A stretch of 64,000 nt of DNA from Candidatus Freyarchaeum deiterrae. Its GTDB lineage: Archaea > Asgardarchaeota > Jordiarchaeia > Jordiarchaeales > Jordiarchaeaceae. Below, in pieces: positions 4,408 through 42,811 of this stretch. The stretch lies in the NCBI GenBank assembly GCA_037305845.1, contig CP147778.1:2656001-2720000 (forward strand). The letters run 5' to 3'. The position numbers and the translations under genes were made by a program. The notes beneath the pieces were generated by a model that did not search any database, was not told the DNA's origin, and saw only the letters and a list, made by a program, of their open reading frames with translations. Position 1 is the first letter of the stretch, and each line of letters starts with the position of its first letter.

Positions 4408-4408
4408 A

Positions 4409-18868: not shown

Positions 18869-21800
18869 TTGTCAATCCTCGTTACTGAGGAACTTTTTTT
18901 GCAAGTATAGTTTCATAGATATATTTTTACTATTCATAGACTTCTTTCAATCCTCGTTACTGAGGAACTTCTTTTGCAAGTCATAGATCCAAACACCGCA
19001 CTACTAGAGTTACAAACTTTCAATCCTCGTTACTGAGGAACTTCTTTTGCAAGATTCAACAAATAAAATAGAGGAGAAAGAGAAGAATGCCTTTCAATCC
19101 TCGTTACTGAGGAACTTCTTTTGCAAGCAGAAGGAGAAGCGGATTGAAGTATTGGCTCTAATAGACTTTCAATCCTCGTTACTGAGGAACTTCTTTTGCA
19201 AGGGATAAAGGCTGATACAGCACATTCAGAGCATCTAACCACTTTCAATCCTCGTTACTGAGGAACTTCTTTTGCAAGTTGGTGCTCAGGATCCTAAAAT
19301 GATTACGCCTATAATACTTTCAATCCTCGTTACTGAGGAACTTCTTTTGCAAGTAAAATGTTCGAAAAAAAGAATAGTTTATAGGTAAAAACTTTCAATC
19401 CTCGTTACTGAGGAACTTCTTTTGCAAGATAGGTGTGGGGTTGATGAACGCCGGTATGTATATGCCTTTCAATCCTCGTTACTGAGGAACTTCTTTTGCA
19501 AGTACTTCAGCGGAACATTGGCTGCGAATGGTTCAGTTCCTACTTTCAATCCTCGTTACTGAGGAACTACTTTTGCAAGGTTTTTTCGATGAGTTAAATT
19601 TAGACTTGTTGTAAAAGCTTTCAATCCTCGTTACTGAGGAACTACTTTTGCAAGTGAAACTGCAACGAAGAGAGAACATGTACCACTCAAGCTTTCAATC
19701 CTCGTTACTGAGGAACTACTTTTGCAAGTGTAAAAATGTTAGTTCTGCTAGTTATTCTCTTCCAAAACTTTCAATCCTCGTTACTGAGGAACTACTTTTG
19801 CAAGCTAAAAAGAAAAAATGAAAGAAAATTGAATAAAAAGCTTTCAATCCTCGTTACTGAGGAACTACTTTTGCAAGTCTTTTTTTATTTAAATAATTCT
19901 TCTAGTTTGAAAGTACTTTCAATCCTCGTTACTGAGGAACTACTTTTGCAAGCTTCTTCAAAACTATCTATCGCCTCCGACAGAAAAATACTTTCAATCC
20001 TCGTTACTGAGGAACTACTTTTGCAAGGTAATAATCCGTCAAATTGCTTACGCCGTAGCAGTTGTACTTTCAATCCTCGTTACTGAGGAACTACTTTTGC
20101 AAGAATTCAAAGGAACAACATACATTCAGAACACCACACAGACCTTTCAATCCTCGTTACTGAGGAACTACTTTTGCAAGTCAGTGTGAGGAGTCCCGCG
20201 AAATCCGCTGGATCTACTTTCAATCCTCGTTACTGAGGAACTACTTTTGCAAGACTATGACGCAGTAATCCAACAACTCATCAAAGAAATCCTTTCAATC
20301 CTCGTTACTGAGGAACTACTTTTGCAAGGTTTCTATGCTTAACCAAGAATCCTAGTCTTTATAGTTACTTTCAATCCTCGTTACTGAGGAACTACTTTTG
20401 CAAGGACTTTTTTATTTATTTTTTCAAGTAACTTATCTATACTTTCAATCCTCGTTACTGAGGAACTACTTTTGCAAGTATCTAACTGTGAGGAGGCAGC
20501 AAAATAGTGGATAAGCCTTTCAATCCTCGTTACTGAGGAACTACTTTTGCAAGATATATCTGCTAATATCCACAAGGTGAGCAGCTTCACCCTTTCAATC
20601 CTCGTTACTGAGGAACTACTTTTGCAAGCTCGGTCTTGGAGCTTTCGTAATTTCCAATATTTCTTTCAATCCTCGTTACTGAGGAACTACTTTTGCAAGA
20701 AAGGGAGAAAAGACAGAGACAAGCGATTCATAATATTCTTTCAATCCTCGTTACTGAGGAACTACTTTTGCAAGTATGGGCAGCAACGTTACAAACACTA
20801 TGATTCTTAACTTTCAATCCTCGTTACTGAGGAACTACTTTTGCAAGCTAGTATTTACATTCCTTCGGTTTGGCAGTGGCAGCTATCTTTCAATCCTCGT
20901 TACTGAGGAACTACTTTTGCAAGATATAGCGAAGCATTCACCCAACTTGTGACGCTCTCTTTCAATCCTCGTTACTGAGGAACTACTTTTGCAAGAAAAA
21001 TGAGTCTCGGAACAGGAGCCGCAGTGTTCATAGCTTTCAATCCTCGTTACTGAGGAACTACTTTTGCAAGTAATGAAGTATGGACTTATGACGGTATATA
21101 CCTAAAACCTTTCAATCCTCGTTACTGAGGAACTACTTTTGCAAGTTGCATACGCACTTCTAATCTGGGTCAAACTTTTGACACTTTCAATCCTCGTTAC
21201 TGAGGAACTACTTTTGCAAGATATCTCAGACTAGTACCATAGATGCGTATATAGCTTTCAATCCTCGTTACTGAGGAACTACTTTTGCAAGCTACTACCA
21301 GCTTATCGGTGACGCGGCGAACTACTTGCTTTCAATCCTCGTTACTGAGGAACTACTTTTGCAAGACAGAATCGGGTTACGCTCTCCAGGTTAATTCCGC
21401 TACTTTCAATCCTCGTTACTGAGGAACTACTTTTGCAAGTAAATGTGGCTAGTGCTCCTTGGCAGGCTTTTTTTGTTGCTTTCAATCCTCGTTACTGAGG
21501 AACTACTTTTGCAAGTAGTACACCAACTATTCTAGTTATTACTAAAACTAGGGCTTTCAATCCTCGTTACTGAGGAACTACTTTTGCAAGAATTTGGTGA
21601 ATTTGATAGAGAAATTTGTAGATATTACTTTCAATCCTCGTTACTGAGGAACTACTTTTGCAAGGAATAATACGCCTTTTGACCCTTATTTTTCAATTGA
21701 AGCTTTCAATCCTCGTTACTGAGGAACTACTTTTGCAAGGCTTTTCGCGGCGTAAAGTGCAGATTGTAAAACTTGGCCTTTCAATCCTCGTTACTGAGGA

Positions 21801-24714
21801 ACTACTTTTGCAAGATCTAATGATCATTTGAGTCCAATTCCAGAAATTAAGGGCTTTCAATCCTCGTTACTGAGGAACTACTTTTGCAAGCCGAAGCGTG
21901 CAGCGCGAAGGTAATTTAGGGGTGCGAACTTTCAATCCTCGTTACTGAGGAACTACTTTTGCAAGCTCTAAACTCCTTTTCCGTACTGGAATTTATAAAC
22001 CTACTTTCAATCCTCGTTACTGAGGAACTACTTTTGCAAGTATGATTTCTCGTGTCTTTTCCTCTAACTCTTCATACTCTTTCAATCCTCGTTACTGAGG
22101 AACTACTTTTGCAAGCCATTTTTGTATGATCCTCATAAATGTCGTTTTGGCATCTTTCAATCCTCGTTACTGAGGAACTACTTTTGCAAGTTCTTCAACT
22201 CCTTTTTTTTATCCTCCGGAAGCATACTTTCAATCCTCGTTACTGAGGAACTACTTTTGCAAGGACTGTTCGAGATTTTCAATACCGTAGTAATTGCAGC
22301 AACTTTCAATCCTCGTTACTGAGGAACTACTTTTGCAAGAATAAGGCTTCATCTTTTTTCAGGCTAGTTAATGTTTCTTTCAATCCTCGTTACTGAGGAA
22401 CTACTTTTGCAAGAACCATTCCACATCTTTTTTCTCTGCTCGGTCAGCGTACTTTCAATCCTCGTTACTGAGGAACTACTTTTGCAAGTTAGCGCTGCGC
22501 AGATCCCAAAAAACAATAACATCAAGCTTTCAATCCTCGTTACTGAGGAACTACTTTTGCAAGAATAGTTGCGAAGATTATGCAGCTTAGGAATGTTTCT
22601 TTCAATCCTCGTTACTGAGGAACTACTTTTGCAAGCATGTTGTAGTTCATAATTTTGTTTATGATGTGAAACTTTCAATCCTCGTTACTGAGGAACTACT
22701 TTTGCAAGTGTATTCTGCAAAGAATGTTACATCTCCTAACAGACTTTCAATCCTCGTTACTGAGGAACTACTTTTGCAAGGTATTAACCTAACCTCTATT
22801 TTTGCATCTCCTTCTTTCTTTCAATCCTCGTTACTGAGGAACTACTTTTGCAAGGATATTTCAGAGATGCGTATAATGAGAGTTCTATATTCCTTTCAAT
22901 CCTCGTTACTGAGGAACTACTTTTGCAAGCTAATTAATAATTCCTTATGTGTTGAACGGAAAGATGTCTTTCAATCCTCGTTACTGAGGAACTACTTTTG
23001 CAAGATCTTCTTTTTTAATCTTCTTTTGAAGTATCTCACTGCTTTCAATCCTCGTTACTGAGGAACTACTTTTGCAAGCCATAGTCTGCATCCCATGCCA
23101 GTCCTGCATCCACTTCTTTCAATCCTCGTTACTGAGGAACTACTTTTGCAAGGGACTACGTACCATTAGTAAACTCTACGCTTGAATACTTTCAATCCTC
23201 GTTACTGAGGAACTACTTTTGCAAGTAAACAATATCGGAGTTTTATAGCGCAGTTACAAAAATCTTTCAATCCTCGTTACTGAGGAACTACTTTTGCAAG
23301 TTATGTTTTCTATAATGTTCATTTTCTATATTAGCTTGCTTTCAATCCTCGTTACTGAGGAACTACTTTTGCAAGAGCCTATAAAAACTATTAAAAAGAA
23401 ATTGTTTCTTGTCTTTCAATCCTCGTTACTGAGGAACTACTTTTGCAAGATGACTTTTTTCATCAACTTGTATTACTGCTACATCAGACTTTCAATCCTC
23501 GTTACTGAGGAACTACTTTTGCAAGATATCTCAAAGCCCTGATTGGTTCATGTGATACTTGACTTTCAATCCTCGTTACTGAGGAACTACTTTTGCAAGG
23601 TTAAGATTCTTCAGGAGTCGAAGAGGATGAGTTTGAACTTTCAATCCTCGTTACTGAGGAACTACTTTTGCAAGTGATTTCTGTTTTCTATGAGTAGGCA
23701 TCCCAGTTCCAGCTTTCAATCCTCGTTACTGAGGAACTACTTTTGCAAGAACATCTATCTCTCAATTTTTGAGATCTCACCAGTCAGCTTTCAATCCTCG
23801 TTACTGAGGAACTACTTTTGCAAGAAAAACCTGTCAATATTTGATCACACATCAGATATTGCTTTCAATCCTCGTTACTGAGGAACTACTTTTGCAAGTA
23901 ATGAAAGAACTGGAGAGTGTGTTGAAGTGAACTCTTTCAATCCTCGTTACTGAGGAACTACTTTTGCAAGCCAATTTCCCGAAGCTCATTATTAAGCACA
24001 CCTACGTCTTTCAATCCTCGTTACTGAGGAACTACTTTTGCAAGGCTCAACGCGTACGCTAACGCATGCCTGCCGAACATCTTTCAATCCTCGTTACTGA
24101 GGAACTACTTTTGCAAGAGAGAGAAAAGGGAGAAACTCAAGGCTAATAGAAAGCTTTCAATCCTCGTTACTGAGGAACTACTTTTGCAAGAAATATCTTT
24201 TCGATTTTACTGACTTGAGGAACCTGATCTTTCAATCCTCGTTACTGAGGAACTACTTTTGCAAGTGTATCTACGTAGCGGGAGCAATCATCCAGATGAT
24301 TCCTTTCAATCCTCGTTACTGAGGAACTACTTTTGCAAGAAAAATGGGGTTTTCTCGTTCGTGGAAAGGCGAGAAACTTTCAATCCTCGTTACTGAGGAA
24401 CTACTTTTGCAAGTCGATACGGTGATAACCCCGGCATTAACCAATTCTACGCTTTCAATCCTCGTTACTGAGGAACTACTTTTGCAAGCGTGAAATGGAA
24501 TATAGAATAGACCTGGCTAAACTTACCTTTCAATCCTCGTTACTGAGGAACTACTTTTGCAAGATCCTGGGTTCCCGCAGCGAATACAAAACGGTCTATA
24601 TTCTTTCAATCCTCGTTACTGAGGAACTACTTTTGCAAGTCTACTACCAGCTTATCGGCGACGCGGCGAACTACTTGCTTTCAATCCTCGTTACTGAGGA
24701 ACTACTTTTGCAAG
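18869..24714 (-). CRISPR. CRISPR array 1: 79 repeats and 78 spacers (hand count); repeat CTTGCAAAAGTAGTTCCTCAGTAACGAGGATTGAAAG (37 nt)
   Basis: Regular repeats with unique 34-40 nt spacers. The degenerate terminal repeat at 18869, the AT-rich leader on the right and the 3' ATTGAAAG tag fix the minus orientation. Internal hairpin TCCTC/GAGGA. Confidence 0.99.
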
Positions 24715-25303: not shown

Positions 25304-26378
25304 TTAGTGTTTCTTGGCTGGTGTTTTGAGGTTTTTGTTCTCCAGAATTTTCTGGTTTGTTTCGAGGAATTCCTGGAGTTCGGGGTTCTCTGTGGCGATT
25401 TTCAGTGACTCCGTGTTCCAGTGGTCCGCCTTTTTGCCTCTCCAGACGCCGTAAATTTTTGCCTTTATTTTTCCGGTTATGCCGATGACCCCGTAAGTGA
25501 TAGCTGCGGTGTAGAGGAGCAGTGCAACATCTTCCCAGTCTACCTCAGTGCTCATTGGGGGTTCTTCTTGGCGGTCGAGGCGTATTCCCTTTAGTTTGAG
25601 TGCGGTGGCTCTATCGGTGAAGGCTTCATCCTCGCTGAAGACCAGCAGGTCTACGTTTCTCTCTTTGGAGAATTTTTGCAGCACCTCAAGTATTTGCAGG
25701 TCACCCCTTCCTCCCTTCAGTTCCTCGAAGTATTCTCGTATTGACATCTTACGGTACTCCACGAAACCCATTCTAAAGAGTCGACAATCCAGCTTCAACT
25801 GGTTAAAGAACTCATCCAAGATATCACGATCCACATTAAGCGCACCACTCATCTCGGAGATATCGGATGTCTTATATTTGGCGTCGATGCCTCCCAGTTC
25901 CGCTAACACACCCTTTGAAGTCACGAACCCCGCTCTCAGTTGATTCGAATGCAGAAGATTTGAAACCAGAGTGTAGTGCCTCCTTATAAACGCGTTAGTG
26001 TCAAAAGAAATAAAGACCGATCTCTCACCCTTCAGAGGATCCCTCTCCAACTCGTCTAAAATCCTCTTCTCTATCTGAGTCCATTTCTCAGGTTTATGCA
26101 CGCCCGCGGCGAAAAACATGTTAAGGTAATCCGCTTACCCGGGAATCTCACCTACCACCTCACCACAACTCCTCCTCAGCCCCTCGTAAACATCTTTCTG
26201 TATTAAGCCACCAACTTCCGTAACCTCCCTAGGACCACTAAGAGTAACCCAAAAACAATTCCCGGTCAAGAAGTTGATCAAGCAGAAAAGACTTCACCCT
26301 AAACGAATTAGCACCATTCAGAAACAAACCATTCAAAAACAGAAAAAAATCCCCAAGCGGAACAAAAAACTCATTCAC
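25304..26378 (-). pseudogene. PIN-domain ribonuclease with disrupted 5' part
   Basis: ISFDTNAFIRR, GVLAEL, RGDLQIL and FSEDEAF acidic PIN motifs lie in 25304..26119. The original GTG start at 26378 overlaps the CARF stop and is followed by two frameshifts and a TAA (GEIPG*ADYLNMFFAAG). Confidence 0.75.
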
Positions 26379-26871
26379 CAGAACCCCACCCCTCCCTCAC
26401 ACAGTCCAAAACGTTAACCAGCCTCTGCTGATTAAAGGGAATCAAAATGTACGGTCTATCCTGATAAGCAGCATTGAAAAGATACAAGTAGTACAATTTA
26501 CTCACATTAAACTTCTGCCCCCTATCCGCCATCGCAACCGCCATAGCACACGCACTCATAAACTTCCTACCCGGAGTCATATCAACTGCAATCTCGTTAC
26601 CAGCCTCCGACCGAGCAACACCCATGAAAACCTTAGCAAAAGCGTCCATATCCTCCTCATCACAATCATGCTCCTCGAAAACAGGCACAACACCATAACA
26701 CCCCAAAACCCTAACCAGCCAATCCCTCACAGGAGCAACATTACGCTCAACCTTCCCATTCTTCAAAAGATGAACCCTCCCAGACACCAAACCATCACGA
26801 ATACAAGCAGCCCAAAGAGGATTAACAACCACAAAAACACTCGAACCAACCGTAGTAACCCAAACCCTCAT
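26371..26871 (-). CDS. Stand-alone CARF-domain protein (166 aa)
   Basis: Motif I (WVTTVGSS) and motif II (IAVDMTPGRKFMS) of the CARF fold; no fused effector. Confidence 0.85.
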   Translation of the reverse strand: MRVWVTTVGSSVFVVVNPLWAACIRDGLVSGRVHLLKNGKVERNVAPVRDWLVRVLGCYGVVPVFEEHDCDEEDMDAFAKVFMGVARSEAGNEIAVDMTPGRKFMSACAMAVAMADRGQKFNVSKLYYLYLFNAAYQDRPYILIPFNQQRLVNVLDCVREGWGSGE

Positions 26872-27146
26872 AAAACCCCAAACTCCTACAAAAACAACAC
26901 CAAACTAAAAAATATTTAATTTTCAACCCTTAAAAACCTTTACATGAACCGACAAAAAATAATTCCACCTTATCTAATCCCCATTTATCCCCCAATAAAA
27001 GAAAATGAGGTATCAATTGAGATTTCTGGCAAGTTTACCCAGACTAGCAAGAAAAAGGAAACCATGCAAAATTTAGAAAGAAAAGGTTACACACCCGGCT
27101 GAGAGCAATCTAACCTATGAGTTGCAAAATCCAATGAGCCCATAAA

Positions 27147-27242
27147 GTTTCAATCCCTTATAGGTAGGCTCCAAACTCTAAATGAAAAAAGAATAGAGTT
27201 CATGGCAGAGCAGTTTCAATCCCTTATAGGTAGGCTCCAAAC
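27147..27242 (-). CRISPR. CRISPR mini-array 2: 2 repeats and 1 spacer; repeat GTTTGGAGCCTACCTATAAGGGATTGAAAC (30 nt)
   Basis: Two identical 30-mers (27147-27176 and 27213-27242) around a 36-nt spacer. 3' ATTGAAAC tag; sits just downstream of the type III operon with a non-coding leader-like gap. Confidence 0.85.
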
Positions 27243-27586: not shown

Positions 27587-29380
27587 TTATGAGGGTAAGC
27601 CTTCGTTGTCCTCGGAGGCGATCTTTAGGGGGATTCCCTGTTTTTTATTTTTTACGAACCATTGGAAGTTTCTTCCTTCTACGCCGGGTTTTTCTGAGGT
27701 TCTTGGATAGTGTACAGTCAAACCAGAGGAAGGTGCACTTAGTATCGCTTTAAGGTCTTTGACGTTTTCCAATTCTTCGAAAGTTTTGTTGTATTTATTT
27801 TCCATGGCTTGTTTGAATGAATTTTTGCATTCTTTTATTTTTTGGTTGGTTATTTTTTTCCATTCGGTGTTTGAATAGGATGCGTATCTTTCTTTTATAT
27901 TAAGTATACTGATGTTCTCTATGGATATTTTTACGCTTCCAAATCCTAGTGGCTTTGCTAATCCTAATTTGTGGTGCATTTCATCCTCCATTTCTATTGA
28001 CCAGAGCAGTGCTCCAAGTTCTACTGGTGCCAGGTTTTCGAATTCTATTGTAAACTGGAATTTGGCACCGGGGTTTAAGGCGTCTCTGATTGTTCGATTT
28101 TGCTTGTCTATTATTATATTGTCTGTCCGGATGTATTCCTGTTCTTTGGCTTCGGTTTGGTGCCTGTAGAATTTTCTACCCCTTAACTGTGCACCGGGTG
28201 TATCGTAAGTTACGGATAACTTTGGCTTTCCTTTTTCAAAAAGGTAGAAATATGTTGTGGTGGGTTTCGGCGTAGATAGAATTGCACATGGGAATTCTTT
28301 TTGGTGGTCTTTGTTTTCTACTATTTTTGCGTGGCTTATTCTGATTCTTCCCGCGTAGGATACCTTCATTTCAAGTTCTTTAGATGGGTTTTGATGCACC
28401 CAGCCGAATACTCTGCAAGCGGGGCAGAGTTCGTTATAATCTGAGCAGGGATGAAATTCTTTTGGGAGTAGGTCGCCAATAGACTTACTAAAAGGTTTAC
28501 GATAAATCTGAGCATAACCGAATTCGTTTATCTTTTTTCTATTCTTTCCTACTCTAAACCATATTGTATCTCCTGGTCGGGGATACTTTGTATGTTCGTG
28601 TCTATTGTTTCTATTCGCGATAACATAGTTTTGGTACGTTTCATAGGATAATTCGAAGTATGTTGATGAATTATCATCGACAAATACACACTCGTTTCTT
28701 TTTTGAGTTGAACCGGGTATTCCTTTATCGCTTGTTTTTAGATAACCTTCCAAGTAGCCTCCAGTATTTTTTTCTTTTGCATTATATTCTTTTACCTCAG
28801 ATACTTCATTATTATCAATCTTTACTAGGACCTTTTTCCCATTCATCCTGAAATTATTCGTGTAACGAGGAAATCTGTTATGGGGTAATCTGTATGCTTT
28901 CATTTGTTTAACGCGTCCAAGTTTATTTTCACTTTTAGGAATTTCTATTATCAGCCCCGCAATAAGTGGTGTTTCATCGTATTCTTCAGGTCTTTCTCTT
29001 TTCCCTAAAAGTCCCCCTTCAAAAATCGAAAAACAGGAATTGGTAGCGGCTTCGAATACACTCCTCAATGTTCCCCTCAAAGTTGTGGAGGGTATTGCAA
29101 AATATTCTTGCCCATTTTCATTTAGTCTGAAGAATCTGTATGACTTGTGTTCTTTCACTTTGTCATTAACATGAACCTCTTCGGGGTCTGATACGAAAAT
29201 TGGTGTAACAGCCTTTAGTTCGCATTCTATCCTGCCGGTTAATCCTATGAATCTGTCGTGCGGCGGCGGGGCGCATTTTCCTAAAAGTTTATTCTCGGGC
29301 GTATCTTTCTCTTTTCCTTGAGGTAAATATCTTACAAAGTTGTATGGATTTAGGAATCTGTGACTACTCATTTTCATCAT
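27587..29380 (-). CDS. cas7: Type III-D Cas7 with large insertion (TIGR03986-like RAMP)
   Basis: FLNPYNFV N-terminus, IPSTTLRGTLRSVFEA, CPACRVFG, RGRKFY and the HKLGLAKPLGFGS G-loop. Confidence 0.93.
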   Translation of the reverse strand: MMKMSSHRFLNPYNFVRYLPQGKEKDTPENKLLGKCAPPPHDRFIGLTGRIECELKAVTPIFVSDPEEVHVNDKVKEHKSYRFFRLNENGQEYFAIPSTTLRGTLRSVFEAATNSCFSIFEGGLLGKRERPEEYDETPLIAGLIIEIPKSENKLGRVKQMKAYRLPHNRFPRYTNNFRMNGKKVLVKIDNNEVSEVKEYNAKEKNTGGYLEGYLKTSDKGIPGSTQKRNECVFVDDNSSTYFELSYETYQNYVIANRNNRHEHTKYPRPGDTIWFRVGKNRKKINEFGYAQIYRKPFSKSIGDLLPKEFHPCSDYNELCPACRVFGWVHQNPSKELEMKVSYAGRIRISHAKIVENKDHQKEFPCAILSTPKPTTTYFYLFEKGKPKLSVTYDTPGAQLRGRKFYRHQTEAKEQEYIRTDNIIIDKQNRTIRDALNPGAKFQFTIEFENLAPVELGALLWSIEMEDEMHHKLGLAKPLGFGSVKISIENISILNIKERYASYSNTEWKKITNQKIKECKNSFKQAMENKYNKTFEELENVKDLKAILSAPSSGLTVHYPRTSEKPGVEGRNFQWFVKNKKQGIPLKIASEDNEGLPS

Positions 29381-29381
29381 C

Positions 29382-29945
29382 TCACTTAATTTCTAGGAAC
29401 CATACAAAGGAGATTACTCCCTGTTCGCTCAATGTTTTGTAGTGTATCTTTGCAAAGTTCGAGTTGCCTTTTACAGGGTAGGAGAGTCTTGCCTTTGCGA
29501 CTCTGTCTTCTTGCCATATACTTCTTTTCGGATCGTATGTTCTTCCCCAGAGGAGTGCTTCTTTTTTTTCTATGAAAAACTTCTTGTCAGGATTCTTTTT
29601 CCAGAAGTCCTCTCCGTTTGTATTTTTTGGTGGATTGTTATTGCCTATGTATCTCCATATGAAACGATTTGTATCTCTCCTTAGATCTAGATCTCCGTCT
29701 TGTCCGAAAATGCGTATTCTTTCGACTTGGTTCGAAGGTATTTTGGAAAAGTCAAAATTCTTTTTAATGATTATTTCTTTGAGTGTCTCTAAAATTGTGA
29801 ATGGCATATTTGAGAAATTCCACTTGCTAATAAATTGTTGTAAACTATTTTCCTCTATCTCGCTGCCCCAAATTTGAATATCGTTTTTTGATATTCTATT
29901 TTCTTCAAGCAAATCATTTATTTTCTTACTAAAATCAGTGCTCAC
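29382..29945 (-). CDS. csx19: Type III-D subunit Csx19
   Basis: Lies between cas7-7 and cas7-insert; RIRIFG..GDL and LLWG...ARLSYP motifs. Confidence 0.8.
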   Translation of the reverse strand: MSTDFSKKINDLLEENRISKNDIQIWGSEIEENSLQQFISKWNFSNMPFTILETLKEIIIKKNFDFSKIPSNQVERIRIFGQDGDLDLRRDTNRFIWRYIGNNNPPKNTNGEDFWKKNPDKKFFIEKKEALLWGRTYDPKRSIWQEDRVAKARLSYPVKGNSNFAKIHYKTLSEQGVISFVWFLEIK

Positions 29946-31648
29946 ATCACCACCTCCCTGGGATAGAGTTTGTCAATATCTTCTTTGAAATAGGTGTCTG
30001 AGGAAGGAACCATGCCTTTCACTCTAGTGAATTTTTGTAATTCGTTATGAAACTCTTTTATCCAAGACTCAACTGGCTTTTTCGGTTCCGTGGTTAGTTC
30101 TTCAAAATTCCATATTCTGGTATTAAAAAAACCATCAAAGGAGTTATTCATTTTAAGTCCTGTTGGGATATATTCATTTGTGATGGTTCCAATCTTTATT
30201 TTTTCGTCTTTTGTTATCGTCTTTCCAAACCATTTGTTTTGCCCGAATCCTACTGAGAAAAGTCCTTCTTTAAGGTCTCTTAAAACGAGCAACAGCCATC
30301 CCAACTGCCACTCTTTGGGGTTTTCAAGTAGCATACTGACTTTAAAGGTTGGCTGCCATAGGGCTAGTGCGTCAAATTTTGCTCCCTCTCTTCCGCCACC
30401 TGTAAATCTGTCGATTGCTAAAAAGTCCATTGTTTTTATTTCAATTTTATCTGAGAGTGGCAGATATCCATCTCTTATGTATAACTGGCTGCCTTTATAT
30501 GAACTGCCGAAAAGTCTGCATGCAAGGCATAGCTGCTCGTCTTTTACCTCTTCTTCGGGTGATTTTCTATTTTTACGAAATAGAGTATTACAGGAGGTTA
30601 AGGGGCTATTTTCGTCGGCGTGAGGATTACATGCTGGACATCTTGCAAGGAAGTCATTGCCGTTTTTGCTGTTCAGAGTGGTTAGGCTTCTTGCAATTTT
30701 TTCGGCTTGGGAGCGTAAGACTCCCCGTAACGATGATCCGGGAAGTACGAAGTTGCCATTTTCCATTTTGGGACAAAAATCGAAATTAGATCGGACTGAA
30801 CTTAATATATCATTTACGACAAAGCCGCCAGTGAATTGAAGAGTGAAGTCAATCTGAGCAAAAGAATTGTAGAGGTGGTCATTGTCAACGTTAAGTTTTT
30901 GTTCTTTTACCGTTTTCTCTATTAGTTTTTTTGCTTCGTCTAAATGGTTGCTTAGCCAGCCTTTCTCTTCAGTTCCTGTTTTAATCAGGTCATCTTCTCT
31001 CAAAAAAGTCATCAATCGATCAATGGATAATAAGTTTAAGTTATAGACTTTAACATCCTCTAATTGCATGTTACCTAATCCTCTGGCTACGTCGCCCCCA
31101 AGATTGCCCCTTCCACGTGACCATTCCGAAAGAATAGATGCCAAAAGACATTCTTGTTCCCTAGAGACATTATCCTGAAGATCAATTCGAAAAGTAAATA
31201 CTGAATCCTTCGGAACAATTTCAAAATCATACTTTGCGCGTATTGTACGCGCTGAGGATTTTGATTCCCTATCAATGCCTACCCCGTCTCTGATAGAGGT
31301 CCTCGCGTCGCTCGTTAAAACAGCGTTGTATACCCATATCTTTGAAGCTTTGGCTTTTTCTTCATCCAAATCTTCGCTAGGATTAATTGATCCAAACAAA
31401 TCGCAAATACGGCAGTCACAAAAATCGTCTGAAGGTGGTTCAAGTGCGAGGCACTTGTCAAACCCTAAGTGGGGCGCAATTCTTGTAGTTAATGTTCTTA
31501 AAGCGCCCGCAATTGCAGTTCCGGGGATAAGGATGTCTCCTATGACATCTCTAAATATTGGTAGATCTGTGGTTTCGGTCCTATCTCCAGTGCCTATATG
31601 AATTCCGGTTAATGCCCTTAACTTCCCAGAGATTATTTTCTTAATCAT
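29942..31648 (-). CDS. cas7: Type III-D Cas7-Cas7 (double RAMP) fusion
   Basis: Two RAMP units: HIGTG...IPGTAIAGALR...LGGDVARGLG and LPGSSLRGVLRSQAEKI...CLACRLFG...VGFGQNKWFG. Start at MIKK behind AGGAGG. Confidence 0.92.
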   Translation of the reverse strand: MIKKIISGKLRALTGIHIGTGDRTETTDLPIFRDVIGDILIPGTAIAGALRTLTTRIAPHLGFDKCLALEPPSDDFCDCRICDLFGSINPSEDLDEEKAKASKIWVYNAVLTSDARTSIRDGVGIDRESKSSARTIRAKYDFEIVPKDSVFTFRIDLQDNVSREQECLLASILSEWSRGRGNLGGDVARGLGNMQLEDVKVYNLNLLSIDRLMTFLREDDLIKTGTEEKGWLSNHLDEAKKLIEKTVKEQKLNVDNDHLYNSFAQIDFTLQFTGGFVVNDILSSVRSNFDFCPKMENGNFVLPGSSLRGVLRSQAEKIARSLTTLNSKNGNDFLARCPACNPHADENSPLTSCNTLFRKNRKSPEEEVKDEQLCLACRLFGSSYKGSQLYIRDGYLPLSDKIEIKTMDFLAIDRFTGGGREGAKFDALALWQPTFKVSMLLENPKEWQLGWLLLVLRDLKEGLFSVGFGQNKWFGKTITKDEKIKIGTITNEYIPTGLKMNNSFDGFFNTRIWNFEELTTEPKKPVESWIKEFHNELQKFTRVKGMVPSSDTYFKEDIDKLYPREVVM

Positions 31649-33971
31649 TTTTCTCCCTCCTTTGTGAAGCTGCAATATAATCTGCCAAAATTTCTATGGC
31701 TTTGATTTTCAAGTATTCTCTTAAGCGTTCATCCGCGCTTTGTAATCTTTCCGAAAGTTTATCCAACGCGTCCAATAACGAATTCAACCCTTTCTTTCCT
31801 TCTTCTTCCAGAAACGCCTTCTTATCTCTATAAACCTTTTTTTGCTCGATTGAATCCTTCATAGGCTTTTCGAGGACATGAAAATTACCTATCGTTTTCT
31901 TTATTTCTTCAATAGTCTTCTTTGCATTAGTTCTTAGCCATCGCGATATGGCTGTCCATCTAGGATTAGTAAACTCTTTTTTGTTTATATTTTCCTTTAA
32001 ATACAATTTCCAGCTTTCCTCAAAAGATCTTACTGCATCTTCCCTTTTGGTGCTACGCATATGTTCTGGCAGAAGAATTCTTACAGTTACTCCTTTATTT
32101 TTGCTGTAAATAGGATGATTAAAGGCTATTCGCCCAAAGCCTTCATCCTTTCTCAGGCCTATGCCCTCTCTTTCTAATTCCATTAGGAGGTTCAGTAACT
32201 CATCGTTATTGTTTGAATTTTTTATTTTGAAACCGATGCTTGACCCCGCAGCGATTCCGGCATCTCTCCATTTTGGCAGGCCTAAGAAAGTATTGAAACC
32301 ATCTATATTCTTCGACTTATTGTAGGTATTAATTTCTTCTACATCTACACCAAGCAACTTTTTCAACAATTCTTCATCTAGTGCGGTAAGAAATCTTCCC
32401 CAGTTATCTACTAAAATAGCATCTGTTATCAAGGTCATTGTGAGAGGCTGTGTTAAATCTATTACTCGTTCCTTTAGGGGTTTTCCAATAAAGATGTTCT
32501 CCTGATTCTCTTCTGGTTGTAACCAGCCTTTTACCTTTCCATATCCGCGAGAGGATGCTTTTCCAATACGCAAATCAAAAGTAATGTTTTCATTATTCTC
32601 ATTTATCCCCATAAGATTAGCAAAGTTTGCCCAGTCCTTAATCTCTATGCAGCCATTGAAATATTGCCCGGATTCAATAGAGATGTAACTAAACAAATCT
32701 CCTTTAATTGTTCTCCCAGTTTCTGGGTCAATGGTAATATGCATTTCTTCTCTAAGCGCAACATCAATCGCTTTCGCTTTCTCATGAATTGGTAAAAATT
32801 TATTCAATGGTTCAAGGGGTACTTCAAACCCTTCTTCTACTTCTTTTTCTCCTTTTAAACATATTTCACAGCACTTGGGTTCGTCTATTTCAATGGCATA
32901 GCCTTTCACACCGTGTCCATCCTTGTCAAACTCCGGGGAAAGTTTGCAGGTCAAAAGGTCTTGTGGTGAGATTATTGATGGATGGACGTTATCCCCTATT
33001 TTCCATACGGGGTATAGAGGACTTACTTTAACTTCGCCTCTGCGAAAGAGTTTGATAAATTTTTCATAAACGTCTTCTTCGTTCAAATTCCAGTTCTTTG
33101 CTATTTTCCACGCTAGGGCACCAAGAAAGGTGTAACCCGATATATAGATATTAGTATAGTATCTGTTTCCCGACTCGCCCTTATTGGCTATAAGCAAAGG
33201 CTCTTTTGTGAGCAGAATTACCCTAAAACTTTTCTTATGGGTTTTCACTCCCCTAAGTTCGATTTTGGTGGCTTTTTCAGAGAAACCTAATTCCTTATTT
33301 TCTAACCATTTGGTTCTGAAATTTTTAAGAAAATAGTCTTCTATGAAAGTATCTTTTATTTTTTCTAAACCAGGAGTTACATCAGTAAGATGAATTTGAC
33401 AATGTCCTTTACCTCTTCTGCGTGATGAGCCTAAATTTCTTACCACCCTGAAAGCCGCTACAATAAATGATGCTTCTTCTAAAGTTTGCTTATCATTGTA
33501 TTCGTTACTTACTGTAAAAACAAAATTTACTTCCTTACCAGCCGTTTCTTCTCTAAATAGCTTTCTTGCTTCCGCTGTACGCGTTCTTGGACTTACTCTG
33601 TTACGCCAGACTATTTTTTCGGGAGTTACTATTTTTGGATCTTCTATCTTTGCAGAAGAAATGCGCCATCTTTTATCATATGCAGGTGTTCCCAGAATTC
33701 GGCAAACTGGACACATGAAGTTTATATCATCTGCAGCACAATAGGAAACTTTGGAGTTATTTCCTGATCGCTTGCACTTTCTATGTTGTTCCAGTAAAGA
33801 CAATTGCAGTAATTCCCACATCCCTTGTCGAAGGAGCCCACTGAGAGTTGTGCCTCTTATTACAGGAAAACCATCTTTATCTTTCAGGAGAGCGGAATCT
33901 ACATTTCCACTTCCATAACCCGCACCGACATGGTAATCTGATAAAAGATTTATTTTGAATGTAAGTTTCAT
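31641..33971 (-). CDS. csx10: Type III-D Cas7-Cas5(Csx10)-Cas11 fusion (776 aa)
   Basis: N-terminal Cas7 (YHVGAG, IRGTTLSGLLR, LGSSRRRGKG), central Csx10/Cas5 (IGKASSRGYG, GIGLRKDEGFGRI) and a ~140-aa helical tail interpreted as Cas11. Confidence 0.85.
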   Translation of the reverse strand: MKLTFKINLLSDYHVGAGYGSGNVDSALLKDKDGFPVIRGTTLSGLLRQGMWELLQLSLLEQHRKCKRSGNNSKVSYCAADDINFMCPVCRILGTPAYDKRWRISSAKIEDPKIVTPEKIVWRNRVSPRTRTAEARKLFREETAGKEVNFVFTVSNEYNDKQTLEEASFIVAAFRVVRNLGSSRRRGKGHCQIHLTDVTPGLEKIKDTFIEDYFLKNFRTKWLENKELGFSEKATKIELRGVKTHKKSFRVILLTKEPLLIANKGESGNRYYTNIYISGYTFLGALAWKIAKNWNLNEEDVYEKFIKLFRRGEVKVSPLYPVWKIGDNVHPSIISPQDLLTCKLSPEFDKDGHGVKGYAIEIDEPKCCEICLKGEKEVEEGFEVPLEPLNKFLPIHEKAKAIDVALREEMHITIDPETGRTIKGDLFSYISIESGQYFNGCIEIKDWANFANLMGINENNENITFDLRIGKASSRGYGKVKGWLQPEENQENIFIGKPLKERVIDLTQPLTMTLITDAILVDNWGRFLTALDEELLKKLLGVDVEEINTYNKSKNIDGFNTFLGLPKWRDAGIAAGSSIGFKIKNSNNNDELLNLLMELEREGIGLRKDEGFGRIAFNHPIYSKNKGVTVRILLPEHMRSTKREDAVRSFEESWKLYLKENINKKEFTNPRWTAISRWLRTNAKKTIEEIKKTIGNFHVLEKPMKDSIEQKKVYRDKKAFLEEEGKKGLNSLLDALDKLSERLQSADERLREYLKIKAIEILADYIAASQRREKND

Positions 33972-35494
33972 TTTTCCTCCTCCTCATATTCCGAAATATC
34001 CTTTTCAAGGTCATAAGCAAAATCCCAAGCACGTAGAAGGTCAGGTAGTTGATGGAAATACTTACCTTCAATCATCAACCAGTTACCTTCAGTTCCACGA
34101 TCCCCAAGTTCTACTAGCGCCTTATTTACAGTCTTTCTTAACTTCTCCTCCAATCTGTCTAAAATAGAGCTTCCTTCGGGTATCCATTCGTTTTTCATTT
34201 CAGCAAAATCTAATTTTTCTGCTCTTAGGAATAGAGTTTCTAATTGTGCTCTTCTCGTTCCGGGTAAGTTCTTCAGTTTATATCTATAATCTATCAATTT
34301 TTCGAGTTCTTTGACTGTATATGCTGTAAAACCTGCAACGAATCTTTTTTCTTCTTCTGGTGCTTTAACAACCTCACTTCCTGTAAGTACAGTAAAGGAG
34401 ACTGTTGAGGATTTTTCTTTTTTTGCCCTTTTCTTAGCCATTTTCAATAGTTCTTCTGCGATTCCATGAGCAGCCAAATAAGGAAACTTACCCTTACAAA
34501 TGACAACAGCTGCTGAAATTGTAGGTGAAAGTTTGGTTTGGAGCTGAATTTCGCTTAAGAATTCTTCCATATTTTTCTCAAATTCCTTAGAAAATCGTAG
34601 AGTGAAATCGAGTGCCCATCGGGCGGGAAGAAGAGCAAAAACATCATCACCACCAAGAATAAGAGGTAAAACCGGAATTAGGGTTGAACTTTTACCTGGT
34701 TTTTGCAGGAACCCATTTTGCTTTTCCAAGAGAATCTTCGTGGGGTTCGCTAATGATCTATGGATCACGTTATCTAAACCTTCAGATAGTTTTCCTAGTT
34801 GCTCAAAATTATTACTTGAATTGAAGATGGTACCCATATTATTACCATCTGCGACAATATAGGCGATATAGTTTCTTGGTTCTAATTCTGCTACTTCATC
34901 CGCATCCTTTCTTGGAAAATCGAGTTCTTGACGCTCCCCATTTTGTATATCCGTTAGAAATTGTCTGGGAAATCTCTTTTTAATATTTTCTCTTGCCTTT
35001 GCTTTCTTCTCACATACTTCACATAGATAATTTTCCTTTTCATCGGGAAATCTACTTTTATAATCAATCGCGATTCCTATACCACAAGATGCGCATATTG
35101 CTATGTATGGCATTTGTTCTACTGATATGGGAAGTTTATCTCTATGTTTCGCTCTTCTCAAATTTGTTTGTGCTTGCTTTATTGCATCTCGGTCGGACGT
35201 AATCTCTACTCGTTGTGCTATAGTTATTGTTCCGCCTAATTCTCTCCTGTAAAATTCAGATAGATATTCTCCAAATTCTTCTGCTTTTTCTTTTGAATCA
35301 AACAAAATTCTGAAGGACCCTCCATCAGAGATAATCTTCGTACCATTTAACTCTTGAATAAGTTGTGGAACTGCGTCCTTACAGAATTCTTCAAGCATTT
35401 GGCTGCCACCAGAGACTTCTCGCAATTTGGATGAACGAAATAGCAAATCCTGTATTTTGTCTGCTTCTGCAATAAAAAGATACTTATTACTCAT
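33968..35494 (-). CDS. cas10: Cas10, compact and HD-less, with intact cyclase palm
   Basis: KIQDLLFRSSKLREVSGGS, GGSF, CASC/CEVC zinc finger, ADGNNMG and LILGGDD. Confidence 0.95.
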   Translation of the reverse strand: MSNKYLFIAEADKIQDLLFRSSKLREVSGGSQMLEEFCKDAVPQLIQELNGTKIISDGGSFRILFDSKEKAEEFGEYLSEFYRRELGGTITIAQRVEITSDRDAIKQAQTNLRRAKHRDKLPISVEQMPYIAICASCGIGIAIDYKSRFPDEKENYLCEVCEKKAKARENIKKRFPRQFLTDIQNGERQELDFPRKDADEVAELEPRNYIAYIVADGNNMGTIFNSSNNFEQLGKLSEGLDNVIHRSLANPTKILLEKQNGFLQKPGKSSTLIPVLPLILGGDDVFALLPARWALDFTLRFSKEFEKNMEEFLSEIQLQTKLSPTISAAVVICKGKFPYLAAHGIAEELLKMAKKRAKKEKSSTVSFTVLTGSEVVKAPEEEKRFVAGFTAYTVKELEKLIDYRYKLKNLPGTRRAQLETLFLRAEKLDFAEMKNEWIPEGSSILDRLEEKLRKTVNKALVELGDRGTEGNWLMIEGKYFHQLPDLLRAWDFAYDLEKDISEYEEEEK

Positions 35495-37127
35495 TTCTAT
35501 CCACTCTCCGTTTCGGCAAGAAATCTATTCCACATAAATCGCATAATTCCTCCCAGCTCATTGCTTCAAATTTCCAATTAGTAGAAGCAGTTTTAACCCA
35601 GTTTTCTTTAAACTCTTTTAGATTTTTCTCGGCCATAATCACGGCCACATCAGCTATTTCCTTAGAGAAACTTAAACAAAAATGAATTGCCTTGTTTCTA
35701 AGGGTAAAAACATCATCAGGTAAGTTTAATCCTTCAAATTTTATGTTCTCCCAAAATTTATTAAGCTTAAGTGCATTCTCTGACCGATGAGCTTTAACCT
35801 CACCTGTCACTTGTCCATTAATCAGTATACAATAGTCAGGTTTTGATGATATCCATCTAAGTGACTTAATCAAATAAGGTGCACCTGAAAATTCAAGTAT
35901 TTTTCCATCTATTTTGGATAACAAATCTTGGTCTCTATTTTTCATATTTTCTCTATTGAAGATACTCTCATTCATCTCTATAACAAACTGGTTATTAACC
36001 CACAATCTGACCACTCTCGCCTTGAGTAAAAATTCATTCAAGCCAGTAGCACGAAGCAATGCTGAGCGAAAGTCCTCACCGTATTGGATAAGGCTCCTAA
36101 TTTTTGCAAGTTCATCATCAGCGTATACGAGAATCTCCTCGTCTTTAAGATAGATCGATTTCTCTATGTCCCTCAAGCCTTCTATGGAGTCAATACCACT
36201 TTTAAGATCATTTTTATCTGGCCAGATTTTACCTAACTTTTTCACAGCAGTTGGACAATGTTCATCTGATATTCTCTTACTCATTTCTTTAAAATTCCAA
36301 CTGCCTCTATAATCTCCATCAGCCCACAATCCATAAAAATTCAACCATTCCCAAAGAGAATTTATACTTTTTAACGTTTCATCGTCCAAAAAATTTTCAA
36401 TGCCTTCTTCATCTTTCAAAAAGTTTCTGATACTTTCTTTTATCTCCTCAACCAGTCCTTTAGCGCTCCAGAACGCAAACCTTTCATATAATTGCCTTAC
36501 TCTATCCCACTCACGAAGTTTAAAAAGTTCCATAGGATTTTTTAATTCACTAACTTTACAGGTATATCCATAAGGTTTTCCATACCTTTCACTGAATTCA
36601 TCATCTACATAACACACCGGGGTATTAGTATAAGCAGCAAAAAGATACGCGCCTGAAACCATGCTTTTCTTGGCACCCGTGATATCTATAACAACTCGTT
36701 TACCTTCATTAAGAAGTGGCAGAATATGCTTCCTCAGGTATTTAAAGACAGCTTGCGGCGTGTCTTTTACTGTTTCCCATGGACTTGGTGCAACCTCAGG
36801 TTTAACCTCAACTAAATTTTTATCTTTTAATTTATTTACGAGTTCTTTGTACTTATCTCCTCTTGCTGCCCCTCCAAGTTCACCATACCATTCGTTTAAA
36901 ATCAGGATAACCTCTTTTGGTTTATATGCACAAACAGAAATTAAGAGCGGTTCCCAAGAAAACCCTACCAATTGAACAAGAATTTCCGTAGGTTCAAGGG
37001 TTATTTTAGAGTGTTCTCTCCTATAATCTAATTCTTTGGGCAAAAGCCTTTGAATATATTCTTCCACATCCCATCGTTCAAACCAGTACTGTTCAGTTAA
37101 CTCCCTCAATTCATTATCATTCATCAT
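35487..37127 (-). CDS. CARF-HEPN ancillary ribonuclease (Csm6/Csx1-like, TIGR02710-like)
   Basis: LVGFSWEPLLIS and IDITGAKKSMVSG CARF motifs, helical middle, C-terminal RNKAIH (RxxxxH). Confidence 0.88.
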   Translation of the reverse strand: MMNDNELRELTEQYWFERWDVEEYIQRLLPKELDYRREHSKITLEPTEILVQLVGFSWEPLLISVCAYKPKEVILILNEWYGELGGAARGDKYKELVNKLKDKNLVEVKPEVAPSPWETVKDTPQAVFKYLRKHILPLLNEGKRVVIDITGAKKSMVSGAYLFAAYTNTPVCYVDDEFSERYGKPYGYTCKVSELKNPMELFKLREWDRVRQLYERFAFWSAKGLVEEIKESIRNFLKDEEGIENFLDDETLKSINSLWEWLNFYGLWADGDYRGSWNFKEMSKRISDEHCPTAVKKLGKIWPDKNDLKSGIDSIEGLRDIEKSIYLKDEEILVYADDELAKIRSLIQYGEDFRSALLRATGLNEFLLKARVVRLWVNNQFVIEMNESIFNRENMKNRDQDLLSKIDGKILEFSGAPYLIKSLRWISSKPDYCILINGQVTGEVKAHRSENALKLNKFWENIKFEGLNLPDDVFTLRNKAIHFCLSFSKEIADVAVIMAEKNLKEFKENWVKTASTNWKFEAMSWEELCDLCGIDFLPKRRVDRNE

Positions 37128-37140
37128 TCATCCTCCCTCA

Positions 37141-37422
37141 CTATCCTCTCCTAGAATCTTTTCCCCAGCCGTGAAGTATGGAGGCAGATCCAATAAATCG
37201 AATTAAATCTTCTCCTGCAATCTTTTCCCACACTTCCTCAGAAGGCTTCCCTCTCATCATAAGCTCCTTTACCATAGCAACCATTATTCCCGCTATGAGA
37301 ATCAAATGATCGTAAAGGCTTACTTTTGAAATTCTAGTGTCAGCAAGCACACAGCCTCTATTTTTTAAATCATTTATGAGTTTGTTAATTTTGGAAAAAA
37401 TTTGGTATATTGTTTCGCTCAT
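37141..37422 (-). pseudogene. Truncated Cas10-type HD-nuclease domain
   Basis: LADTR...SLYDHL and ASILHGWGK (compare AALLHDIGK; HD changed to HG); ends after 93 aa. Confidence 0.7.
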
Positions 37423-37782: not shown

Positions 37783-38457
37783 GTGAGGATTATTGACTAC
37801 AAGTCTGTTCTTGGAAGAAGGAAAACGCGGTCTATTTTAGAGGTGGTGGCTCGTGCAGGTGGGGAGATCAGGTTTAGTGAGCTTTGTCGGGCTGCTGATA
37901 TTTCCAAGTCTACTCTTGACTACAACTTGACTATTCTTGCTAGTAACGGGATTATTACGCGTGATAGAGGCTTGATTAGGCTGGAGTATAAGACTCCTCT
38001 GTGTTACATTTTTGATTCTCCAAGGACAAGGGCTTCTTACGCTTATCTCGGTCTTTTGGGTGAGAGGAGTGGCAGGAGCGAGTCTGAAACTGAGACTGCT
38101 ATCAACCTGCTTGGAGAGGAGGGCTTCGTGTTCAGTAGGGTGGCGGTTGTTACCACGCACAGGTGTGCTGCGGAGTGGGAAGGAGTGGCTCCGGGCAGTG
38201 TTGACTGGTTTCTGTTAAAGGACGAAGAGATAAGTTTGGTGGAAGTTATAGAGGCGAGGGTTGAAGCGAGTCTCTCTGATTTGTTGAGGAACTATGTTTT
38301 GATAATGGACTGCACTTCTGCTACTAAGCCCGCGACCATAGCCTACTATAGACTGGCGACGAGGCATAAAATTCCCTTGGTTTACGTTTATGAGAAGAAA
38401 AAAGAACTCACATGGATCATATCGAGGGAAGACCTACGTGGGGAATTGGTGGGATAA
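37783..38457 (+). CDS. wHTH-CARF transcriptional regulator (Csa3-like, reversed domain order)
   Basis: N-terminal RRKTRSILEV...FSELCRAADISKSTLDYNLTILASNGII (ArsR-type wHTH). C-terminal YLGLLG...IMDCTSATKPATIA...IPLVYV (CARF). Divergent from the cas operon. Confidence 0.85.
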   Translation: MRIIDYKSVLGRRKTRSILEVVARAGGEIRFSELCRAADISKSTLDYNLTILASNGIITRDRGLIRLEYKTPLCYIFDSPRTRASYAYLGLLGERSGRSESETETAINLLGEEGFVFSRVAVVTTHRCAAEWEGVAPGSVDWFLLKDEEISLVEVIEARVEASLSDLLRNYVLIMDCTSATKPATIAYYRLATRHKIPLVYVYEKKKELTWIISREDLRGELVG

Positions 38458-38604
38458 TTAGCAGGAGTTCGAATGCTGTTATGCTGGTTACGTATTGTCT
38501 GTCCTTTTCCTCCAATTGTTAAAGGCCGACTTTCCTGGTTCTCTGCCTCTGAGGTAATCTACTATTATGTCTGTGTCGACGCATACCGCATTTATAGTTT
38601 CCAT
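38458..38604 (-). pseudogene. vapC: VapC (PIN) toxin remnant
   Basis: METINAVCVDTDIIVDYLRGRE..., then a frameshift to YVTSITAFELLL, truncated against the end of the HTH-CARF gene. Confidence 0.75.
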
Positions 38605-39026: not shown

Positions 39027-39842
39027 TTAAGGGTTTTCGGGGATTGTTTGTTGTGGTGGTTTTGTTTTTTGGTGTTCTATTTTTTGGGTGGCTCCCATTC
39101 CGGTGGTTCTTTTGGCTCCGGTGTTGGCTGTGGTTGCGTACCGTGTGAGTATGTTTATCCAAGGTGCGTATTCATCTGTGCTGTTTAGGAGGTATTCCAG
39201 GGTTCCTGTGAATCCTGCGAGTTTTACCTGTTTTCCTATGTCTATCTCTCTGGTTTGTAGGCTGTATTTGCGTATGTAGACGTTTTTTTCTATCCAATCG
39301 TGTAGTTGCTGGGTGTCTACCTGTACTTGTGGTGGTGCGTTTTGGTTCCATAGTCGGGCTAGGTTTCCGTACACGTACCTTGGATCTGGGAATAGTAGGG
39401 GGAAGTCTCTTCCTATTATTGGGAGCTGGGTGGGTGAGTGGAACCTTATGGTTATTACGGGTTCTGGTTGGGCGGTTTTCACCAGTTCTTCGTGTGTTGT
39501 TCTCTTGAGTTCTATTCTTACGGGTGTGAAAAGGGTTTCTGCGAGTTTGATTTCCGGCCTGCCTTCTAGGATTTTTTGGAAGGCTTTTTCTCCTATGTTG
39601 TCTTGTAGAAAGCCGGCGTGGAATCTTACGTGTTCTCCGGGCTGTATCCACCAGAGGTTTTCGCGTATGTTTCTCTGGTGGGCTACGGGTGCGGCGGGTG
39701 TGACGCTGTAGGGTCTCTGCTGGTGGGGTTCGTGGAGTTTTTGGGCTAGATCGGGGTCGGCGTTTTTGATTAGGTTCAGTAGGGCTCCTCTTATGAGGTG
39801 TCCGGTAAAGGGGTTCACTCTTCCGGAGTCTGTGGCAACCAT
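39027..39842 (-). CDS. cas6: CRISPR endoribonuclease Cas6
   Basis: LAQKLH...RPYSVTP, IRFHSPT, LFPDP, GFTG and the C-terminal G-loop TGAKRTTGMG. The frame stays open upstream (TIDLWIE), so the start is uncertain. Confidence 0.93.
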   Translation of the reverse strand: MVATDSGRVNPFTGHLIRGALLNLIKNADPDLAQKLHEPHQQRPYSVTPAAPVAHQRNIRENLWWIQPGEHVRFHAGFLQDNIGEKAFQKILEGRPEIKLAETLFTPVRIELKRTTHEELVKTAQPEPVITIRFHSPTQLPIIGRDFPLLFPDPRYVYGNLARLWNQNAPPQVQVDTQQLHDWIEKNVYIRKYSLQTREIDIGKQVKLAGFTGTLEYLLNSTDEYAPWINILTRYATTANTGAKRTTGMGATQKIEHQKTKPPQQTIPENP

Positions 39843-42790: not shown

Positions 42791-42811
42791 TACGCAATAA
42801 GCCCCTTAAAC

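Follow-up and report, generated by a model that had tools for sequence, protein, structure and literature searches.

Type III-Dv CRISPR effectors have been studied in one cyanobacterium and are cited as a step toward the single-protein type III-E. Whether an Asgard archaeon encodes an effector of this design, and how such an effector obtains its guides and its signalling output, is the question raised by a cas operon of Candidatus Freyarchaeum deiterrae. The operon lies within 64,000 nucleotides of contig CP147778.1 (positions 2,656,001 to 2,720,000), here called the window; coordinates refer to the window unless a genome or locus identifier is given. A preliminary description of this DNA had proposed a complete five-gene III-Dv-like unit. 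The present analysis indicates that the operon very likely encodes an intact type III-Dv effector with its own Csm6 ribonuclease, which relies on arrays and a Cas6 shared within the host.

Operon architecture and the C-terminal tail

Five uninterrupted open reading frames (ORFs) lie on the minus strand in the order cas10, cas7-cas5-(cas11), cas7-2x, csx19 and cas7-insert. Neighbouring ORFs overlap by 4-8 nt or sit 1 nt apart, and ribosome-binding sites are present. Hidden Markov model (HMM) family searches assigned the first protein (33968..35494, 508 aa) to the Cas10 palm family; its ADGN (position 215) and GGDD (position 281) motifs are intact, it has four zinc-finger cysteine residues, and its N terminus opens straight into the palm, with no HD dipeptide anywhere in the protein. 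The same searches detected Cas7 followed by Csx10/Cas5 families within one 776-aa chain (31641..33971), in which Cas7 occupies approximately residues 1-200 and contains D25, Cas5/Csx10 occupies about residues 250-625, and a helical tail covers about residues 630-776. Cas7-2x (29942..31648) contains two RAMP domains and matches PADLOC Cas7_IIId with an E value of 1e-103. Its likelier start is the ATG at 31648, which has a GGAG ribosome site and gives 568 aa, rather than the TTG at 31675, which gives 577 aa; the residue labels D37 and D299 used below follow the TTG numbering. Csx19 (29382..29945, 187 aa) was recognized by PADLOC Csx19 (E 1.6e-46) and by TIGR03984 (E 2e-6, under that model's cut-off), and the compact Cas7-insert protein (27587..29380, 597 aa) by TIGR03986 (E 4e-114, exceeding the cut-off). 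Cas7-2x and Cas7-insert are separate polypeptides, with a stop codon and csx19 between them.

When the four large proteins were searched against the Protein Data Bank (PDB), the top match of each was the corresponding chain of the Synechocystis III-Dv structure 8S9T (E 6e-15, 5e-11, 1e-21, and 1e-47). The 776-aa protein aligned to its Synechocystis counterpart over the Cas7-Cas5 portion, residues 3-624, in hhalign (99.8%, E 2e-29). Gene order and fusions are identical to those of the published Synechocystis operon (PMC11026444). The ORFs, the HMM families and the 8S9T matches bear out the III-Dv order and fusions described earlier, as well as the intactness of the complex and its HD-less Cas10 with GGDD.

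The assignment of the tail was approached by structure modelling. Residues 628-776 were predicted to form an all-helical bundle with a predicted local distance difference test (pLDDT) score of 85. In a structure search of 48,161 chains the second row was the Cas11 domain of the III-E protein Cas7-11 (Z 6.7, root mean square deviation 3.4, 97 residues aligned), and the third was 8S9T_A residues 619-780 (Z 6.6, deviation 6.1), with 123 residues the longest alignment. Cas11, Csm2, Cmr5, and Cas10 C-terminal folds made up 11 of the top 50 rows, and re-alignment of Foldseek candidates placed Csm2 and Cmr5 in the top three places. Some results speak against a Cas11 identity: the top row was a cullin and every Z was below 8, searches of the PDB with Foldseek and of the Atlas using the tail model gave no significant match, and comparison with known Cas11 by HMM and hhalign returned nothing significant (hhalign probability 1%). 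With no significant sequence match to any Cas11, the protein might be a Cas7-Cas5 fusion with a helical extension of other origin, in which case the system would be a distinct variant intermediate between III-Dv and III-D2. This is very improbable, however, as the tail equals the Cas11 region of 8S9T_A in position and length and finds its longest structural alignment there, Csm2 and Cmr5 head the re-aligned candidates, and a weak hhalign match lands on the equivalent last helix. There is no separate cas11 gene in the operon. From position, length, the modest fold match and the absence of another small-subunit gene, rather than from sequence, it is highly probable that the tail is Cas11, as the preliminary description had claimed; the likeness of the model is weak but consistent (Z 6-7).

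Active sites, guide supply, and signalling

Residues were compared with those of the Synechocystis plasmid (pSYSA) locus. The three aspartate motifs noted earlier (GNVDSA, TTDLP, and NFDFCP) are present and aligned with the Synechocystis catalytic residues. D25 of the 776-aa protein corresponds to Synechocystis D26 and is invariant in all 117 homologues, whereas D37 and D299 of Cas7-2x correspond to D33 and D246 and are kept in 66 and 63 of 68 homologues, respectively. GGDD is found in 65 of 72 Cas10 homologues and AGDD in 6.

Of the second-shell residues reported from Synechocystis, R706 has a counterpart in the near-invariant R715 (106 of 117 homologues). Other comparisons count against a fully equivalent complex: R678 is one helical turn off the near-invariant R677 (110 of 117), R769 aligns with an alanine and D140 with an arginine and both are without an in-register counterpart, the Cas10 residues H487 and R490 align with alanine and glutamate, and identity to the characterised Synechocystis complex is only 25-28%. 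Near the H487/R490 position, Cas10 has an arginine, R414, that is conserved in 62 of 72 homologues. The second-shell registers are uncertain, as they derive from sequence alignment at about 25% identity. Because these residues, which are required or beneficial in Synechocystis, are out of register, one or more of the RNA-cleavage sites may work poorly.

A second difference concerns the Cas7-insert protein, which has 597 aa compared with 795 aa in Synechocystis; a 112-aa N-terminal domain and approximately 65 aa of the insertion are missing. The insertion measures about 175 aa (163-177 aa in the subclade to which the protein belongs), compared with 240 aa in Synechocystis and about 250 aa in most relatives, and the Cas7-insert proteins of the subclade have 590-611 aa and lack the N-terminal extension. 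In Synechocystis III-Dv a seed gate formed by K396/R400 and D616 has been described; like the second-shell residues, it is a mechanistic feature of the single solved example and does not define the family. The K396/R400 segment is largely deleted in the Freyarchaeum protein and D616 aligns with a lysine, whereas I355, I453, and F767 are kept. From this deletion and the replacement of D616, a Synechocystis-type seed gate may work differently in the compact subclade.

The loss of the seed-gate segment, the out-of-register Arg/His residues in the second shell of sites 2 and 3, and the single cut made by III-D2 would also fit the same complex acting mainly as a sensor, which cuts RNA at one or two sites and confers immunity through signalling from Cas10 to Csm6 with long-lived activation. 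All three aspartates are nevertheless strongly conserved across the family, and the family's own R677, R715, and Cas10 R414 could substitute for the displaced residues, so a primarily sensing role appears unlikely.

Guides for the predicted III-Dv effector can be sought in a CRISPR array 2.9 kb downstream of the operon (18869..24714, minus strand), in which 78 spacers (34-40 nt) alternate with 79 repeats (37 nt each). As its leader is on the right, the operon side, and a degenerate repeat is at the far left end, the array is read in the direction of the operon. The leader is common to two other arrays of the genome, with 65 and 78 near-identical repeats. Each repeat has a 5-bp hairpin followed by the predicted 5' tag AUUGAAAG, and the same repeat family is found behind the operon in J. 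madagascariense. Cas6 (39027..39842, minus strand), the probable processor of CRISPR RNA (crRNA), is 96.5% identical to the cas6 product of a second CRISPR locus. This second region (G000:C1:33155-37306 and 49671-57114; L120, L121) comprises a diverged III-A-like module, a III-C module and the genome's only cas1; it adjoins I-B and cas4 genes as well, and has repeat, leader, and cas6 in common with the III-Dv locus. The newest spacer of the array, number 78, is a one-base variant of spacer 33, which suggests that spacers were taken more than once from an element that persisted and changed slightly. Neither spacer 33 nor 78 had an exact match in viral or metagenome contigs, a further point that weighs against the overall reading, and no convincing self-target was found among the spacers.

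The first gene of the operon shares 8 nt with cas10 and encodes a 546-aa Csm6-like CARF-6H-HEPN ribonuclease (35487..37127, minus strand) with an intact HEPN site, R477-x4-H482, and a PADLOC match to CARF1--CARF_HEPN (E 3e-126). In 55 related loci a full-length Csm6 homologue occupies this position beside cas10, and for this reason csm6 belongs to the cassette. The five genes originally listed stand, but the unit is completed by this sixth, upstream gene. All six genes are free of lesions, whereas an adjoining PIN gene carries two.

The nearest characterised relative of this protein is the Csm6 of T. thermophilus (TTHB152; PDB 5FSH, 8JH1), which binds cyclic tetra-adenylate (cA4) and ranked first in both profile and fold searches. 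The two have the CARF-6H-HEPN layout, the DxTGxxK CARF motif, and the R-x4-H site in common and superimpose with a template modelling (TM) score of about 0.5-0.6, but identity is about 14%, and the Freyarchaeum protein has an additional 45-aa helical N terminus. By fold, the E value was 1e-10 against cA4-bound T. thermophilus Csm6 and 2e-7 against Csm6 of the cyclic hexa-adenylate (cA6) type; by profile, T. thermophilus Csm6 was the sole Csm6 match. In a survey of complete genomes, cA6 effectors were not seen in archaea (PMC11229360). Given the nearest Csm6 structure and this survey, cA4 is the best inference for the messenger. That cA6 or S-adenosylmethionine-AMP (SAM-AMP) is used instead could be argued from the cA6-type structures being second-best fold matches and from a glutamate at position 10 of Cas10, which resembles the SAM-contacting E8 of III-D2. 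It is nonetheless improbable, as the T. thermophilus match is better by three orders of magnitude in the fold search and unrivalled by profile, Synechocystis Cas10 has the same glutamate yet produces cyclic oligoadenylate, and the cassette is without a CorA-like gene.

Two further Cas10 proteins are encoded in the second CRISPR region, one III-A-like (674 aa) and one of the III-C/Csx11 kind (935 aa); each has an HD domain and lacks GGDD, and searches of the genome revealed no Cas10 beyond these and that of the III-Dv operon. The III-Dv Cas10 is for this reason the only candidate cyclase found in the genome.

Taken together with the Synechocystis model, these features suggest how the system would operate. 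Cas6 would cleave array transcripts below the repeat hairpin and leave the 8-nt tag, and Cas10, Cas7-Cas5-Cas11, Cas7-2x, Csx19, and Cas7-insert would assemble on a crRNA of fixed length, presumably with one copy of each as in Synechocystis. D25, D37, and D299 are predicted to cut complementary RNA at a maximum of three positions spaced by 6 nt. A non-self 3' flank would cause the Cas10 palm to produce cyclic oligoadenylate, most likely cA4, and no DNA cutting by Cas10 would be expected as its HD domain is absent. The cA4 would render a Csm6 dimer active, the HEPN site of which would degrade RNA non-specifically, leading to dormancy or death. By analogy there is a high probability that the complex functions like III-Dv, no defining feature of which failed in the comparison, though the Cas11 fold only leans toward a match. 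A more far-reaching proposal can be offered only tentatively, namely that the operon represents a compact, archaea-rich III-Dv sublineage with rebuilt RNA-handling surfaces (a trimmed insertion without seed gate and a Cas11 with another arginine set) that follows different seeding and cleavage rules, and that, with the III-Dv Cas10 as the sole source of cyclic oligoadenylate, nuclease and signalling functions are split among complexes using one crRNA pool.

Host, distribution, and neighbouring genes

The host genome is one contig of 3,576,204 bases, and a curated complete Freyarchaeia genome has been published (PMC11291895). An archaeal 16S model also matches bacterial controls and does not alone fix the domain. 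The archaeal context claimed for the cassette is upheld, as the host is an Asgard archaeon and a genome of the same genus carries an orthologue. Systems of types I-B, III-A, and III-D have been named for the Freyarchaeia genome (PMC11529989), a source whose main text names only these types and gave no match for III-Dv detail or Cas10. The published III-D system is very probably the locus described here, the sole III-D locus found in the genome. A literature search found no archaeal system termed III-Dv.

Full-length relatives of the 776-aa protein occur in Jordarchaeaceae (65-68% identity), Desulfothermus and Cloacimonas (57%), Altiarchaeales (51%), Heimdallarchaeota (49%), Lokiarchaeota (39%), and many Chloroflexota (about 35%). 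Scanning the genome contigs with one sequence as query gave no result; with an alignment as query, relatives were recovered. The same gene order was present in about 70 genome loci, bacterial and archaeal (Chloroflexota, Bacillota, Acidobacteriota, and several archaea), and the architecture is common rather than rare. Among 60 Asgard relatives searched, many with incomplete genomes, only one congener had a full-length match.

In trees, the window copy and two further Jordarchaeia formed one group (support 97-100), which was nested in a strongly supported mixed archaeal-bacterial subclade, itself amid mostly bacterial lineages. Synechocystis sat apart on a long branch of its own, close to loci whose Cas7 has remained an unfused gene. 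These were quick tree searches, and base-composition bias may help to group the AT-rich subclade; the tree of Cas10 that includes distant outgroups has a poor root, very long branches, and weak deep nodes. Within that limit, a check for grouping of Cas10 with ordinary III-D separated it from the one unfused III-D1 Cas10 tested. Approximately unbiased (AU) tests rejected a grouping of the window copy with its three closest named bacteria (p-AU 0.00025) but did not reject, and do not prove, monophyly of the Asgard copies (p 0.27) or of the archaeal copies (p 0.33), or one common origin for the joining of Cas7 to Cas5-Cas11 (p 0.31).

Some features would fit a recent bacterial import, or bacterial DNA misassembled into the genome: relatives of 56-59% identity occur in Desulfothermus, Cloacimonas, and KSB1, the cassette genes have a GC content of 0.35-0.40 compared with 0.47-0.49 in the flanking cas genes (genome ORF mean 0.43), and a full-length match was found in just one of five congeners. 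This explanation is largely refuted, since the nearest copies are those of Jordarchaeia (64-72%), which form a supported clade in three trees, the bacterial grouping was rejected, other Jordarchaeia also have the 93-aa ORF that flanks the cassette and the repeat of the array, and the genome is a single curated contig. Judging from its patchy occurrence and from a clade in which archaea and bacteria are intermingled, the cassette has crossed domains at some point, though not recently for the window copy; the AU tests do not fix the direction of transfer or the number of fusion events. The horizontal acquisition proposed in the preliminary description thus holds over the long term, but a recent origin from the nearest named bacteria is rejected. 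The six-gene cassette would pass between domains over long timescales, and in Jordarchaeia it would either predate the divergence of the three sampled genomes or have spread among them.

Variation was also observed among the related loci. In Nostoc ATCC 53789 (L100) and Persicobacter (L103) the order is the same and Cas7 is apart from a longer Cas5, probably Cas5-Cas11, which represents a half-fused state. Twelve mostly Chloroflexota loci (L037, L038, L042, L047, L048, L050, L051, L053, L054, L055, L066, and L079) each carry two cas7-insert genes of full length, frequently in tandem, which might encode alternative capping subunits. An Altiarchaeales locus (L093) has an unusually long Cas7-2x of 724 aa (2861-5035) and an unannotated gene for 933 aa (8873-11674) behind cas6.

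Several genes surround the cassette in the window. A helix-turn-helix CARF regulator of the Csa3-like type (37783..38457, plus strand) is divergent from the operon and has a 64% identical paralogue in the second locus, and a MazE/AbrB-type antitoxin gene (38519-38818, minus strand) lies between it and cas6. A stand-alone CARF protein of 166 aa (CARF_m1; 26371..26871, minus strand) is intact and is a candidate ring nuclease or sensor. The PIN gene paired with it (25304..26378, minus strand) has been disrupted close to its 5' end by a single frameshift and an in-frame stop, which leaves 271 aa, whereas the proteins of four congeners have 349-362 aa; the idea of a fused CARF-PIN gene was dismissed, as the congeners have two genes. 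A two-repeat mini-array (27146..27242, no strand assigned) has a different repeat, of 30 nt, which occurs nowhere else in the genome and was not detected in five congeners; it is a probable relic. The 93-aa ORF (37141..37422, minus strand) resembles a fragment of an HD-type Cas10 (weak PADLOC Cas10 match, E 0.006) and is 50% identical to an 86-aa ORF ahead of the cassette in another Jordarchaeaceae genome (L005:3764-4024); a search for a longer parent protein found none. It may mark an older cas operon that was replaced by the cassette.

Farther away, a giant ORF runs from 43049 to beyond 64000 on the plus strand (end about 65299) and encodes 7,416 aa rich in Ser, Gly, Asn, and Thr, with one DUF2341 and weak immunoglobulin-like matches in its second half and no Pfam match in the first 3,000 aa; it is probably a surface protein. 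Two paralogous long helical genes at 1-3213 and 4409-7749 (minus strand), 4.6 kb apart, are 83-86% identical in DNA; a break at about 5881 divides the second into two ORFs, and the first is without a Pfam match. Within 41097-43098, a stretch of some 1.5 kb matches G000:1808420-1809910, directly downstream of the 16S rRNA gene, at 82% identity.

Comparison with known systems

The III-Dv system of Synechocystis sp. PCC 6803 (PDB 8S9T/U/V/X) has in common with the Freyarchaeum operon the five genes with their order and fusions, an HD-less Cas10 with GGDD, three catalytic aspartates, Csx19, and nearby CARF effectors. The Freyarchaeum copy is on a separate tree lineage and totals 2,636 aa (about 303 kDa) over its five subunits, compared with 2,852 aa (318 kDa). 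Its Cas10 has four zinc-finger cysteine residues, whereas that of Synechocystis has one; a Thermus-type Csm6 stands at the operon head, whereas CARF-RelE and Csx1 follow the operon in Synechocystis; and, unlike Synechocystis, the locus has no adaptation genes.

The III-D2 system of Gammaproteobacterium HyVt-522 (PMC13294483; probably PDB 9WXH) likewise has a Cas7-Cas5 fusion, a Cas7-insert domain, and an HD-less Cas10, but it has three Cas7 in one chain, is without Csx19 and Cas11, signals by SAM-AMP to CorA, and makes a single cut. A III-D2 identity was rejected for the Freyarchaeum operon, which has no Cas7x3 single chain and no CorA and does have csx19. Also rejected were III-D1, since cas7 and cas5, and probably cas11, are in fused ORFs (compare the unfused locus L106), and III-E, since Cas10 and Cas5 are present and NF041225 scored far under its cut-off.

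The closest counterparts are uncharacterised six-gene csm6-cas10-cas7/5/11-cas7x2-csx19-cas7ins cassettes (L005-L098) of Jordarchaeia, Heimdall- and Lokiarchaeota, Altiarchaeales, Desulfothermus, KSB1, Chloroflexota, Bacillota, and Acidobacteriota, with the same order and fusions at 30-72% identity. A compact Cas7-insert is common to the close subclade, whereas in distant members this protein has 680-890 aa. The III-Dv design has already been solved in a cyanobacterium, and the Asgard copy is a further, slightly trimmed example from a sizeable family that has been described little; the result refines the existing III-D annotation and adds no new biology. It presents the III-Dv architecture as a mobile cassette of six genes that is widespread, has Csm6 as its constant partner and occurs in several Asgard lineages, and offers in the Freyarchaeum copy a second, distant, and smaller test case for the general catalytic and seed features and for the minimal size of the insertion.

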